From an uncultured Chlamydiae bacterium (GTDB taxonomy: Bacteria > Chlamydiota > Chlamydiia > Chlamydiales > JAJFMA01), in assembly GCA_963713615.1 (NCBI GenBank), contig CAVQMM010000001.1, positions 1 through 64,000 on the forward strand: a stretch of 64,000 nucleotides of DNA, in the 5' to 3' direction. The translations under genes were made by a program, and so were the position numbers. Shown here one piece after another: positions 1-18,442 of this stretch (the first letter of the stretch is position 1; every line of letters starts with the position of its first letter). The notes under the pieces are model-generated. The model was not told the DNA's origin, ran no database searches, and saw only the letters and a program-made list of their open reading frames with translations.

Positions 1-3000
1 AATAGCAGCAACTCTGGCGATGGGGAAAGTCTGACAGCTGTTCCTGAAACGGTTACAACAACGGACGGTGGGACAGTCACCGTCAACAGTGATGGATCAA
101 CCACTTATACGCCTCCCACTAACTTTAGCGGAACTGACAGCTTCACCTACCAGGTCAAAAATGAAAATGGTTTGCTTAGCGCTCCAGCTACCGTCAGCAT
201 CGTGGTAACAGATCAAAACCCCGTCGCAACAAACGACAACTATGCAACGGAGACCAATAATCTCCTTACAGTCCCAGTAGGTACAGGCGTTTTATTCAAT
301 GATAGCAACTCAGGCGATGGTGAAGCTTTAACTAGCGTATTAGTTGCACAAGCAACGAATGGCGTGGTCACCCTGAACACGAATGGTTCGTTCACCTACA
401 CACCAAACCATGACTTCCAAGGCACCGACACCTTTACCTATCAAGCCAAGAATGAAAATGGTTTGTTGAGCAATACCGCTACAGTCAGCATTGCTGTTAC
501 AGATCAAGCACCTGCGGGCGCTGCAAGCCAATCCTATAGCACTGAAACGAATAATCCCCTTTCCCTCTTGGCTCCAGGCGTTTTGACCAATAGCAGCAAC
601 TCTGGCGATGGGGAAAGTCTGACAGCTGTTCCTGAAACGGTTACAACAACGGACGGTGGGACAGTCACCGTCAACAGTGATGGATCAACCACCTATACGC
701 CTGCGCTGAACTTCCAAGGCACAGATACCTTCACCTACCAGGTCGAAAATGAAAATGGCCTACTCAGTGCCCCTGCTACAGTCAGCATCGTGGTAACAGA
801 CCAAAATCCCATAGCCAACAACGACAGCTATGCCACAGAAACCAATAATCCTATCACAGTCCCAGTAGGCACAGGTGTTTTATTCAATGATAGCAACTCA
901 GGCGATGGTGAAGCTTTAACTAGCGTATTAGTTGCGCAAGCAACGAATGGCGTGGTCACCCTGAACACGACTGGTTCGTTCACCTACACACCAAACCATG
1001 ACTTCCAAGGCACCGACACCTTTACTTATCAGGCCAAGAATGCAAATGGCTTGCTGAGCAATATCGCTACAGTAAGCATCGTAGTGACCGACCAAGCTCC
1101 TGTGGGTGCTGCAAGCCAGTCCTATAGCACTGAAACGAATACTCCCCTTCCTCTATCCGCCCCAGGCGTTCTGACCAATAGCAGCAACTCTGGCGATGGG
1201 GAAACTTTGACAGCTGTTCCTGAAACGGTGACAACCACGGACGGTGGTACAGCTACTGTCAACAGTGATGGATCAACCACCTATACGCCGGCCCCTAACT
1301 TCCAAGGCACTGACAGCTTTACCTACCAGGTCAAAAATGAAAATGGTTTGCTTAGCGCTCCAGCTACCGTCAGCATCGTGGTAACAGATCAAAACCCCGT
1401 CGCAACAAACGACAACTATGCAACGGAGACCAATAATCTCCTTACAGTCCCAGTAGGTACAGGCGTTTTATTCAATGATAGCAACTCAAGCGATGGTGAA
1501 GCTTTAACTAGCGTATTAGTTGCACAAGCAACGAATGGCGTGGTCACCCTGAACACGAATGGTTCGTTCACCTACACACCAAACCATGACTTCCAAGGCA
1601 CCGACACCTTTACCTATCAAGCCAAGAATGAAAATGGTTTGTTGAGCAATACCGCTACAGTCAGCATTGCTGTTACAGATCAAGCACCTGCGGGCGCTGC
1701 AAGCCAATCCTATAGCACTGAAACGAATAATCCCCTTTCCCTCTTGGCTCCAGGCGTTTTGACCAATAGCAGCAACTCTGGCGATGGGGAGACTCTGACA
1801 GCTGTTCCTGAAACGGTGACAACAACGGACGGTGGTACAGCTACTGTCAACAGTGATGGATCAACCACCTATACGCCGGCCCCTAACTTCCAAGGCACGG
1901 ATACCTTTACCTACCAGGTCAAAAATGAAAATGGTTTGCTTAGCGCTCCAGCTACCGTCAGCATCGTGGTAACAGATCAAAACCCTGTCGCAATAAACGA
2001 TAGCTATGCAACGGAGACCAATAATCTCCTTACAGTCCCAGTAGGCACAGGTGTTTTATTTAATGACAGCAACTCAGGCGATGGTGAAGCTTTAACTAGC
2101 GTATTAGTTGCACAAGCAACGAATGGCGTGGTCACCCTGAACACGAATGGTTCGTTCACCTACACACCAAACCATGACTTCCAAGGCACCGACACCTTTA
2201 CCTATCAAGCCAAGAATGAAAATGGTTTGTTGAGCAATACCGCTACAGTCAGCATTGCTGTTACAGATCAAGCACCTGCGGGCGCTGCAAGCCAATCCTA
2301 TAGCACTGAAACGAATAATCCCCTTTCCCTCTTGGCTCCAGGCGTTTTGACCAATAGCAGCAACTCTGGCGATGGGGAAAGTCTGACAGCTGTTCCTGAA
2401 ACGGTTACAACAACGGACGGTGGGACAGTCACCGTCAACAGTGATGGATCAACCACCTATACGCCTGCGCTGAACTTCCAAGGCACAGATACCTTCACCT
2501 ACCAGGTCGAAAATGAAAATGGCCTACTCAGTGCCCCTGCTACAGTCAGCATCGTGGTAACAGATCAAAACCCCGTCGCAACAAACGACAACTATGCAAC
2601 GGAGACCAATAATCCTATCACAGTCCCAGTAGGCACAGGTGTTTTATTCAATGATAGCAACTCAGGCGATGGTGAAGCTTTAACTAGCGTATTAGTTGCG
2701 CAAGCAACGAATGGCGTGGTCACCCTGAACACGACTGGTTCGTTCACCTACACACCAAACCATGACTTCCAAGGCACCGACACCTTTACCTATCAGGCCA
2801 AGAATGCAAATGGCTTGTTGAGCAATACCGCTACAGTAAGCATCGTGGTGACAGACCAAGCTCCTGCAGGTGCTGCAAGCCAATCCTACAGCACTGAAAC
2901 GAATACACCCCTTCCTCTATCCGCTCCAGGCGTTCTGACCAATAGCAGCAACTCAGGGGACGGGGAAACTGTGACAGCTGTTCCTGAAACGGTGACAACA

Positions 3001-16492: not shown

Positions 16493-18442
16493 CTATTCCG
16501 GCTGCGGTATCGGTGTAGAGATCTCATGAGGCCACACTTCAGGCTGAGAATCAGCCGTTTTCTCAGAAGCTTTTTCGGCGACTGGAGGAACTTGGAGGCT
16601 TACTACAGGAACTTGATTGGCTTCACTGTGTTGCTCGACGATGGGTATATTTGGTGAATGTCCTGTTACCCGAGCTTCTTGCACTGGTGCCGTTGACTTG
16701 ACATTGGGCTTCGCTGACGTCATATCAGGAGGAGTGAATTGGCGGCTTACTACAGGAGCTTGATTGGCTTCACTGTGTTGCTCGAAGATGGGTGCATTTG
16801 GTGAATATCCTGTTACCCGACCCTCTTGAGCTGATGCCGTTGACTTGACATTGGGCTTCACTGACGCCATATCAGGAGGAGTGAAGTTGTTCCCATTGTT
16901 TTCTAAAGTGGGATTGATGTTAAGCTTTAAAGGTTGGTCCCCAAGATCTTCGCCAATATAGGGATCTATCCACAATCTTGAATCACATGGTTCACGAACA
17001 TCCCATAGCTCGCAGCCAATGTCTGCCGTAGAGAATTCAAGAGTACGGCCCACAGCGTTGCTTAACTGTTCCAGAGCAACCTGCAGGTTTCCATAGGCCT
17101 TGAAAGCCTCCAATTCGGCAAACAGGGATTCGGCATGGTACTGGATAACATCATCAGGGTTCATCTGGCCCGCTTCAGCCATCTTTTCAGAGAGAGTATG
17201 CTTGCGACCTTTGACCGAATACATTTCACGTGTTAAACGGTACTGTTCGCGTGTTTCTTCTACATTGATAAATGCCAAGTGAACCTGAGTCAATACGCCC
17301 ATAGACATCGATAGACGCGTTCTTTCATCCAACCAACGCTGGAACCAATTTTTGCAAACAGTAGCTTGTTTTGAAGGCAATGAAAGCAGGTCGATGGCTG
17401 CATGAATACCCACACTCCACCAGTTGTGGAAAAGCAAAAATTTGTTGCGATCATAGTTATATCCACCAAATAAAGCTACCCCAGGGTACATCTGAAGGAT
17501 CGAACTCTTGATTTCATCCAAATCGCTGGCGATCTGAAAGTCCTGCCCGATGAGTTCTGGACGATACATGAGGGCATCCATCTCCAATTGGCAAATATCG
17601 ACATTTAGTTCAGGTACATCCTCCAAGGCAATGTCAGCGAGGACAATGGGACAGCTCGGTGGAATTCCCATTAGGCCTTCCAGTTCCGTTAGGGCACTGC
17701 GGTATTCATTTCGGAAAGCATAGAGCTTAATTTCTAGATCGATGATCCGATCCTGTTCGGTAAGGCCGTTCATTTCCGATACAGCACGTTCGGAAACTTC
17801 TTTACGCACAGTACCCTGACGCTCTTTTAGGGTTCCTATAAGACCTTCAGCCTGGCTTACAGCGCGTCGAGCTACGTTAGCGCGATAGAAGGCTCTTGTA
17901 ACATCTAAGACTAGGTTTTGACGCGCTCTAAGCTGACGCTGTTTGATGATATGCAGCTTATCGGCGTCTTGACGGGCCTGAAAATAGGCGATACCAAAGT
18001 CTAAGGTGTTCCACATCCATTGTAATTCCGCGACCTTGGAATCTTGTTCCGAAGAGATGGATGGAGGAGCAGGAGGTTGAGCCGTCAAAGATTGCGAGTA
18101 AGATCCTGTGTTGCGGTTACGGTGTTTCACCTCTCCAAAGGCAGTCAATTGACCCAATTCCTTGAGCTGATCAGCGCGGAATACTTCGGATTGAACAGCA
18201 GCCTCGAGCCATTGGAGACGAACATCCAAATTATATTTTAGAGCGATGCAGATGGCATCTTCCAATGTTACAGGATGATCTGGAATGCAGGTCTCTTCAT
18301 AGATTTCGTTTATATCTGCCCAAGCGCCCATTTCGCGAATTTCGCAATAGTCACAGTTTTGGCGATACGGGGCGCAGCTTGGAATCAACGTAGCTAGGCC
18401 TGTGATCGCAATGCAAGTAGACAGAAGCGTTTTGGAGCGCAT
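16493..18442 (-). CDS. TolC-family outer membrane channel (probable lipoprotein) with duplicated low-complexity C-terminal tail
   Basis: Lipobox-like IPSC; OEP motifs VTLEDAICIALKYNLD, WNTLDFG, DVTRAFY, ALMYRPEL and QVHLAF. A 49-aa segment FTPPDM...VVS(R/L)Q occurs twice. Confidence 0.85.
   Translation of the reverse strand: MRSKTLLSTCIAITGLATLIPSCAPYRQNCDYCEIREMGAWADINEIYEETCIPDHPVTLEDAICIALKYNLDVRLQWLEAAVQSEVFRADQLKELGQLTAFGEVKHRNRNTGSYSQSLTAQPPAPPSISSEQDSKVAELQWMWNTLDFGIAYFQARQDADKLHIIKQRQLRARQNLVLDVTRAFYRANVARRAVSQAEGLIGTLKERQGTVRKEVSERAVSEMNGLTEQDRIIDLEIKLYAFRNEYRSALTELEGLMGIPPSCPIVLADIALEDVPELNVDICQLEMDALMYRPELIGQDFQIASDLDEIKSSILQMYPGVALFGGYNYDRNKFLLFHNWWSVGIHAAIDLLSLPSKQATVCKNWFQRWLDERTRLSMSMGVLTQVHLAFINVEETREQYRLTREMYSVKGRKHTLSEKMAEAGQMNPDDVIQYHAESLFAELEAFKAYGNLQVALEQLSNAVGRTLEFSTADIGCELWDVREPCDSRLWIDPYIGEDLGDQPLKLNINPTLENNGNNFTPPDMASVKPNVKSTASAQEGRVTGYSPNAPIFEQHSEANQAPVVSRQFTPPDMTSAKPNVKSTAPVQEARVTGHSPNIPIVEQHSEANQVPVVSLQVPPVAEKASEKTADSQPEVWPHEISTPIPQPE

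Follow-up and report, generated by a model that had tools for sequence, protein, structure and literature searches.

The export route of the largest bacterial proteins is an open question. Cag_663 and Cag_665, LEPRxLL giants of Chlorobium chlorochromatii, are made and localised to the partner cell although they were called free of known transport signals; SapC/TolC/HlyD and C-first export were proposed for them, and M50 proteases are mentioned 0 times in the part of the preprint available (Kuzyk et al., bioRxiv 10.64898/2026.03.19.712371). A set of GAF-HlyD, Peptidase_M50-HlyD and HlyD genes with a secondary SecA_DEAD gene, lacking an ABC gene, has been described in silico, and its M50 protein was proposed to be the inner-membrane pore (Kamneva, Poudel and Ward 2015, PMC4452313). 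The daptide peptidase MpaP, an RRE fused to a site-2 protease (NF041824), removes a leader peptide (bioRxiv 10.1101/2023.03.08.531785). What we say of these three sources refers to the available parts of them. Here we analyse a locus that joins an RRE-M50-adaptor fusion, two further adaptors and a TolC-family channel to a giant repeat protein. It lies in the first 64 kb of contig C1 (CAVQMM010000001.1, positions 1 to 64,000; "the window") of an uncultured Chlamydiae bacterium whose genome consists of three contigs, 3.97 Mb (GCA_963713615.1).

Judged from its sequence and relatives, the locus is a real, conserved TolC-type machine that matches the published in-silico module except for SecA. New here are a branch that mostly lacks a secondary SecA genome-wide, a chlamydial clade and a genome-level link to a leader on giant proteins: in a survey of 401 genomes belonging to the phylum, 28 of the 33 with the fusion had the leader, against 2 of the 368 without it. 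We consider it likely that this is a dedicated export and processing machine for leader-bearing giants. We also lean slightly towards the more specific reading that its four genes form one envelope-spanning duct, which would export the neighbouring giant after recognising its leader and would work with no transport ATPase of its own.

Composition of the locus

The repeat protein, two adaptors, M50-adaptor protein and TolC that a first-pass annotation had placed here were all recovered as open reading frames (ORFs). The features, in window coordinates, are:

1..10681, + strand: giant cargo, C-terminal ~3,560 codons; ORF in four frames in the assembly, Big_9/cadherin-like Pfam matches
10682..11707, + strand: Ser/Thr-kinase-like ORF, 341 aa; Pkinase Pfam match
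11775..13121, - strand: GAF-transmembrane-adaptor, 448 aa; structure model with a predicted local distance difference test score (pLDDT) of 91.9, structure matches
13121..13897, - strand: small adaptor, at most 258 aa; TIGR01730 over its cut-off
13980..16133, + strand: RRE-M50-adaptor fusion, 706 aa from the start at 14013; model pLDDT 89.8
14040..14306, + strand: putative RRE/PqqD-like domain, residues 10-98 of the fusion; structure matches
14616..14927, + strand: site-2-protease zinc motifs HExxH (residues 202-206) and NxNP...DG (296-305); conserved residues
16493..18442, - strand: TolC/OprM-family outer-membrane channel, 649 aa; OEP in two stretches (Pfam, over cut-off)

All four machine genes are intact as called ORFs, with one copy each in the genome. 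They are not a single operon, the M50 fusion being divergent from both adaptor genes.

The fusion as an RRE-like domain on a site-2 protease

In the structure model of the fusion, built from 119 sequences (119 of the 120 matches listed; 795 were found), a predicted RRE is followed by about seven membrane helices and a periplasmic adaptor with a 60-residue hairpin. The modelled secondary structure of the N-terminal domain fits the RRE/PqqD fold of three strands and three helices. This domain matched 6jx3_B (Z 9.3, root-mean-square deviation 3.1, 83 of 85 residues aligned) as well as 5v1u_A (Z 9.2) and PqqD 5sxy (Z 8.9), the latter two with near whole-chain coverage, and its structure matches include lasso-peptide leader-binding proteins. 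The RRE sequence profile reached only E 0.29-0.36 on the fusion.

The membrane part matched the structures of SpoIVFB (Z 10.1) and RseP (Z 10.0), and the adaptor part those of MacA, MexA and ZneB (Z ~15), which ranked above HlyD; Foldseek with the full fusion returned adaptor matches only. Pfam Peptidase_M50 hit the fusion with E 1.9e-5, below the family cut-off, and was found at E<=0.01 in all 65 fusion relatives. The residues H202, E203, H206, N296 and D304 are invariant in 119 of 119 homologues, which were chosen by similarity. With these zinc motifs placed in a bundle of membrane helices, the modelled fusion is a predicted site-2 protease (M50). Its best NCBIfam match is the daptide peptidase NF041824 (E 4e-44; 151 bits against a cut-off of 300). 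Basic residues sit on those loops that would place the RRE and the active site inside and the adaptor outside. The RRE-like fold, together with an N-terminal leader on the cargo, speaks for the earlier idea that the fusion recognises and processes the giant in a non-canonical export route; the export itself we infer.

Adaptors and outer-membrane channel

The GAF-adaptor is predicted to have a cytoplasmic GAF domain, one membrane helix (residues 182-200) and a periplasmic adaptor with a 64-residue hairpin. The GAF-like domain suspected at first reading was borne out by structure (GAF fold, Z 14.9 over 139 residues); Pfam GAF gave no match on the protein itself and a match on 8 of 53 family members. 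The adaptor part resembled MexA (Z 15.2). The small adaptor has one N-terminal hydrophobic segment, signal-peptide-like by eye, and again a 64-residue hairpin. Hairpin length is nearly fixed across phyla: 60 residues in 63 of 65 fusions, 64 in 52 of 53 GAF-adaptors and 64 in 46 of 50 small adaptors.

The adaptors fall into the Pfam families HlyD_3/HlyD_D23 and score 24-32 bits with the type I HlyD model TIGR01843, against a cut-off of 208.65. By sequence they resemble adaptors of the RND/MacA type, unlike the type I HlyD type. Thus, of the "type-I-like" label first given to the locus, the TolC-family channel stands and the HlyD adaptors do not. The channel protein begins with a lipobox-like motif that 40 of 47 relatives also have, and its C-terminal extension is of low complexity. 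At two other loci (L022:7774-9957 and L023:8048-10027) the small adaptor is longer by ~400-470 residues that belong to no known family, and a TolC match was not obtained there.

The giant cargo

The window part of the cargo comprises 34 Ig/cadherin-like (tandem-95) repeats of ~98 aa each, followed by a non-repeat C-terminal tail that is conserved within the genus. The gene runs off the left edge of the window, which is the contig end. Further cargo repeats were located with tblastn at the beginning of contig C3, where the N-terminal 2,228 aa are encoded (G000:C3:6684-1, - strand) in a frame open to the contig end. This part begins MLFRFIPLDQRLLFDAS; after the leader come DUF4347, a beta-helix-like region and cadherin repeats. 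Since the same-genus genome G101 is broken at the same place, has homologues of both cargo ends (51% and 39% identity) and shows the same upstream neighbour, the C3 and C1 parts probably belong to one gene, whose product would have at least ~5,790-5,800 aa. Even longer open frames with leader and DUF4347, of 10,031 and 7,169 aa, occur in the chlamydial genomes G367 (contig C5) and G104 (contig C10).

In agreement with the first reading of the cargo as a non-RTX protein, a scan of three cargo pieces gave no RTX nonapeptide. These pieces were the C3 part, the first of the four window frames and the last one, which makes up the C-terminal 1,281 aa. At the N-terminus of the cargo no hydrophobic segment reaches the threshold, and the cargo shows no other export signal. 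Elsewhere, some cargoes may carry RTX repeats: at L160/L161 (G110:C7:70000-105000), where two tandem fusion/GAF-adaptor pairs accompany one TolC and one small adaptor, the adjoining 3,025-aa cadherin protein contains 16 RTX stretches, and ~500 bases upstream of it a 67-aa frame matches the leader.

The DUF4347 domain has His149 and Cys196 in this cargo, and both are present in 25 of 35 relatives. Peptidase_C80 matched 4 of the 35 relatives weakly (best E 2e-4), the DUF4347 profile matched no protease among solved structures, and an Atlas search returned only DUF4347 clusters (<=0.80); assignment to the C80-like cysteine proteases of clan CD is a lead only. Two chains did match the profile: 9qpe_G and a eukaryotic ECT2-like one (11xu, residues 290-458, E 3.5e-12).

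A shared leader accompanies the machine

The neighbourhood survey covered the best 80 of 225 confirmed loci. The motif patterns of the scan included the catalytic motifs, so the loci are biased towards intact proteases and this branch, and many of them are cut by contig ends. They span Chlamydiota, Planctomycetota, Pseudomonadota, Nitrospirota and others; a metagenome scan gave 2 loci. Of the 80, 64 have the GAF-adaptor, 58 the small adaptor, 51 TolC, 50 a cargo-like ORF and 49 all four genes. Among the 32 loci of at least 20 kb, all four genes were found in 25 and a cargo-like ORF in 28, which fits the association of M50-HlyD homologues with giant proteins foreseen by the first-pass annotation.

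Common to the cargoes is the leader L-E-x-R-x-x-[LF]-D. A model of it matches 30 of 33 adhesin-like ORFs with a visible N-terminus, a circular figure, the model having been built from these rows; the NCBIfam model LEPR-XLL (NF012209) matches 27 of 40 aligned leaders. Because the common feature is N-terminal, the C-terminal 300 aa, once suggested as a natural secretion test, are probably the wrong end.

At the genome level, the leader occurred in 30 of the 401 genomes, with an overlap of 28 with the fusion, and in the two fusion-negative genomes the matching frames are only 49 and 79 aa long. Among the 28 genomes with both, at least 5 had given rows to the leader model. Fusion-positive genomes span at least 12 families. 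Their number, 33 of 401, runs counter to the earlier expectation that such a system would be out of place in a chlamydia-like symbiont. DUF4347 (E<=1e-10) was detected in 22 genomes, 21 of them fusion-positive, and several chlamydial genomes have three to five leader matches per one or two fusion genes. No fusion was found in one family of 30 genomes (f4; those listed are 1.0-1.2 Mb).

In a FastTree tree, which lacks 6 of the 29 loci of the phylum, all chlamydial fusions included fall together (support 82, not starred), next to copies from Planctomycetota and delta-proteobacteria, and the present fusion is placed with same-genus copies. Leaders on the chlamydial side of the tree are mostly EERI[VL] and those on the other side mostly E[PSQ]R; shared ancestry alone could account for this split. 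The fusion also occurs on 59 plasmid records, including 18 of Escherichia, 13 of Azospirillum and 8 of Citrobacter.

Search for a motor

Six frames of window positions 1-19900 gave no Walker A motif, and no RND pump was found in that range or upstream on C3. The C3 sequence ahead of the cargo start likewise showed neither ABC nor SecA; it encodes TtcA, a SEC-C protein and, on the opposite strand, a small AAA ATPase. The genome has one SecA and five full-length MsbA/Smd/PglK-like ABC exporters, none over the type I cut-off; its C39-peptidase match is a 257-aa frame only, and no PrtD-type ABC exceeded the cut-off. The first-pass annotation, which had seen no ABC gene in this part and had proposed a look upstream of the adhesin start, is thus upheld for the locus, the upstream DNA and the genome as far as a cognate HlyB-like ABC transporter is concerned.

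Its further expectation, that related neighbourhoods would lack ABC genes, was largely confirmed: SecA was found in 0 of the 80 loci, and an ABC ATPase lay close to the module in 9, namely LptB in 3, an amino-acid importer in 2, and FtsE, ABC-F, a DrrA-type protein and a bacteriocin-type exporter pair in 1 each. We rejected these as motors; all but the exporter pair are housekeeping types unrelated to the module. SapC, absent from this genome and found in 8 of 45 non-chlamydial carriers, was rejected as a core part.

Housekeeping SecA is present in every fusion-positive genome of the phylum that was searched; beside the present one, 27 of the 32 others have a single SecA_DEAD match and 5 an extra SecA-like match. 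A distinct second SecA-like gene was found in 3 of the 45 non-chlamydial carriers. The genomes with extra SecA-like genes are G085, G110, G288, G321, G346, G403, G427 and G430. In G085 and G110 these are SecA_DEAD proteins of ~1,190 aa (L158:1420-5010 and L159:1683-5240), with no module gene in the 7 kb examined. No type I ABC was found in 23 of the 33 fusion-positive genomes. As far as gene content tells, no motor tracks the module across genomes.

Proposed mechanism and its alternatives

We propose that the L-[ED]-x-R-x-x-[LF]-D leader of the cargo is bound in the cytoplasm by the RRE and cleaved at the membrane by the site-2 protease next to it, in the manner of the daptide peptidase MpaP. 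The gate in the inner membrane would consist of the membrane helices of fusion and GAF-adaptor, and a mixed ring of all three adaptors would dock on the dedicated TolC. The cargo would be threaded N-terminus first, probably co-translationally; its Ig/cadherin repeats, folding outside, would act as a ratchet, so that energy would come from translation and folding. The conserved C-terminal tail would retain the protein at the surface, GAF would gate the process, and DUF4347 may self-process. We count in favour of this scheme that RRE-site-2-protease fusions remove leaders in daptides, that the Chlorobium giants, whose genes also adjoin a TolC gene, reach a partner cell, and that the sister form of the module comes with a second SecA. 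A second SecA is an N-first motor. The parts of the scheme differ in strength: N-first threading with leader cleavage seems to us an even call, and the notion that no ATPase beyond translation is involved rather doubtful. Doubtful to a greater degree, and to be called tentative at best, is a separate ATPase-less class of Gram-negative secretion, in which a leader reader in the style of RiPPs (peptides made by the ribosome and modified after translation) and an intramembrane protease take the place of the ABC pump, and the ribosome and outside folding spool the protein N-terminus first through the duct of three adaptors and TolC.

Several points weigh against the duct reading. The Z-scores of the RRE-like domain (~9) barely exceed the search background. 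A 64-residue hairpin is an ordinary RND-type length, and for this reason the equal hairpin lengths are compatible with one mixed ring and not proof of it. In one of the 80 loci (L083) the bacteriocin-type C39 ABC-exporter pair lies 1.5 kb from the module, and 10 of the 33 fusion-positive genomes have a C39- or PrtD-type ABC (C39-ABC-sized frames in 9, PrtD in 1). The leader 30-mer of this genome is a weak variant without an NF012209 match; with its own row left out it ranks first of 6,667 ORFs by position-specific scoring matrix and second to third by hidden Markov model (HMM), and with the chlamydial rows removed from the HMM it falls outside the top six. Its call is supported by the same-genus orthologue in G101, which carries the canonical Glu. 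Kin among the genomes are not independent, five fusion-positive genomes, all assemblies of 140-410 contigs, have no leader, and the cargo is frameshifted in this assembly. The main counter-example is the plasmid NC_009353.1, on which the module stands beside a leaderless 493-aa protein that keeps a C-terminal tail. Finally, no experimental study of the module, nor a paper joining leader, RRE and module, was found in the openly readable literature; the available parts of PMC13723633, PMC6963963, PMC11171427 and bioRxiv 2023.11.21.568195 do not describe the module.

The alternative that survives best, though we think it improbable, keeps the same duct and reverses the direction: the cargo would be threaded C-terminus first, as in type I secretion, with the leader-RRE contact as a tether and the M50 cut releasing the adhesin. 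Such tether-and-cut release follows a LapA/LapG-like logic. The conservation of the cargo tail in the genus, the similar short helix-like end tail of many proteobacterial cargoes and the leaderless, tail-bearing cargo on NC_009353.1 all agree with it, and C-first export is what Kuzyk et al. prefer for LEPRxLL giants in the available part of their preprint. The tails, however, differ between clades and are missing from some leader-bearing cargoes (L019, L162), in contrast to the shared leader; the gene on the plasmid may be what is left of a truncated one; and the energy source becomes still harder to explain for a chain of at least 5,800 aa.

Somewhat less probable still is a motor borrowed in trans, either the housekeeping SecA (or SecYEG) or an unlinked ABC or RND pump. 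The SecA_DEAD protein belonging to the sister form of the module points this way, as do the housekeeping SecA of every fusion-positive genome searched in the phylum and the stock of parts in this genome, with ~10 TolC-family genes, ~11 adaptor genes and an AcrB-type pump at 53806-56934 of the window. But the AcrB gene has an adaptor of its own (53806-58076, - strand) and no adjoining TolC, type I ABCs are missing here as in the 23 genomes named above, and the cargo N-terminus offers no hydrophobic segment that reaches the threshold. For housekeeping SecA, the comparison of gene presence and absence carries no weight either way.

It is very unlikely that the cargo gene is a decaying pseudogene with real frameshifts. 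Its four frames in the window are joined by three changes (+1, +1 and +2, near 3050, 3640 and 6740), two of which are the identical one-base difference at the identical repeat position. On C3, genes whose motifs mark them as probable rpsA and nusA are likewise in pieces, so the changes in the cargo are probably assembly indels. Moreover, the four machine genes are intact, and near-identical pieces from other runs cover the gene in a contig overlay. This overlay lists no adhesin indel, but its pieces are short and do not settle the frames.

We give least credence to a module that is a trans-envelope anchor or sensor, with leader cleavage as the signal and the giant exiting by another route: M50 proteases are classically regulatory, GAF domains sensory and the pore predicted only, but across phyla the cargo stays in the company of a dedicated TolC and three adaptors, and it shows no other export signal.

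Surroundings of the machine genes

The kinase ORF, absent from the first-pass description, separates the cargo from the module. It has no counterpart at that spot in G101 or G064 and no match in 81 related loci; it was rejected as a machine part and is probably a lineage-specific insert outside the machine. Contamination was rejected as well, since the fusion clusters with same-genus copies found at the same site; named close homologues are from Chlamydiota. Contigs from RNA libraries overlap pieces of the adhesin, the small adaptor and TolC and are not usable as proof of expression; the sequencing runs each contained <1/5 of the words, so we make no claim on habitat. Promoter and terminator scans of the locus gave chance-level results.

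The gap between fusion and TolC holds a palindromic element (16172-16385); its 21-base arm recurs genome-wide in 165 near-copies. A second dispersed motif of 24 bases has 24 near-copies, one of them immediately upstream of the cargo gene on C3. Genes for tRNA-Thr and tRNA-Tyr directly follow TolC (18880-19049). Farther along the window are a 2,152-aa protein whose N-domain gives a PEP-synthase/PigC-like match and whose C-terminal part has HEAT repeats (20674-27132, - strand), a DDE transposase (29673-30809) and an IS66 transposase (59205-60749). On C3, 8 kb upstream of the cargo, a 4,853-aa coiled-coil repeat protein with a signal peptide is encoded (G000:C3:14718-29279, - strand; L001:14718-20000 and beyond); no intact ORF of the genome is longer.

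Significance and comparison with known systems

For LEPRxLL giants such as those that reach the partner cell in Chlorobium, this locus and its relatives supply a candidate signal, reader, protease and duct. If the ATPase-less class exists, it would be how LEPR-XLL giants are exported across phyla, and environmental chlamydiae would gain a surface-attachment system not found in the sampled small-genome family. A TolC system that works with no pump of the ABC, RND or MFS type would be an exception to the rule for these machines. The locus also represents a candidate chlamydial secretion route. Azospirillum, a soil bacterium that can be cultured, has a five-gene form in which every step is open to testing.

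With the type I export of giant adhesins (HlyBD-TolC; LapBCE-LapA; SiiCDF-SiiE), the locus shares a TolC-family channel, periplasmic adaptors and a giant acidic Ig/cadherin-repeat cargo. It differs in lacking ABC and RTX, in having three adaptors instead of one, in the N-terminal leader and in the intramembrane protease; by its missing ABC, its adaptor type and its missing RTX it falls outside type I, of which it has the channel. Tripartite efflux systems (MacAB-TolC, MexAB-OprM, EmrAB-TolC) provide the nearest solved adaptor structures and a lipoprotein-type channel, whereas here no pump subunit is present at the locus, adaptors are fused to GAF and protease domains, and a protein cargo is implied. 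Cag_663 and Cag_665 resemble our cargo in the N-terminal LEPRxLL domain, here a weak LEPR-XLL-like variant, in an adjoining TolC gene and in a stated lack of known transport signals, but SapC, proposed there, is absent from this genome.

Contrary to the first impression that no mechanistic description existed, Kamneva et al. had described the gene set in silico with M50 as a pore. Their module likewise has GAF-HlyD, M50-HlyD and HlyD together, sometimes with OEP, in a locus without ABC; it differs in its secondary SecA_DEAD, the likely ATPase there, which here is found at none of the 80 loci and mostly not genome-wide, and in that giant cargo, leader and RRE are not described, nor Chlamydiae listed among the phyla, in the available part of that paper. 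Daptide MpaP, as far as its source is available, has the same N-terminal RRE on an intramembrane HExxH protease; our fusion stays below the score cut-off of that family, adds a periplasmic adaptor, and has a megaprotein instead of a short precursor as its presumed substrate.

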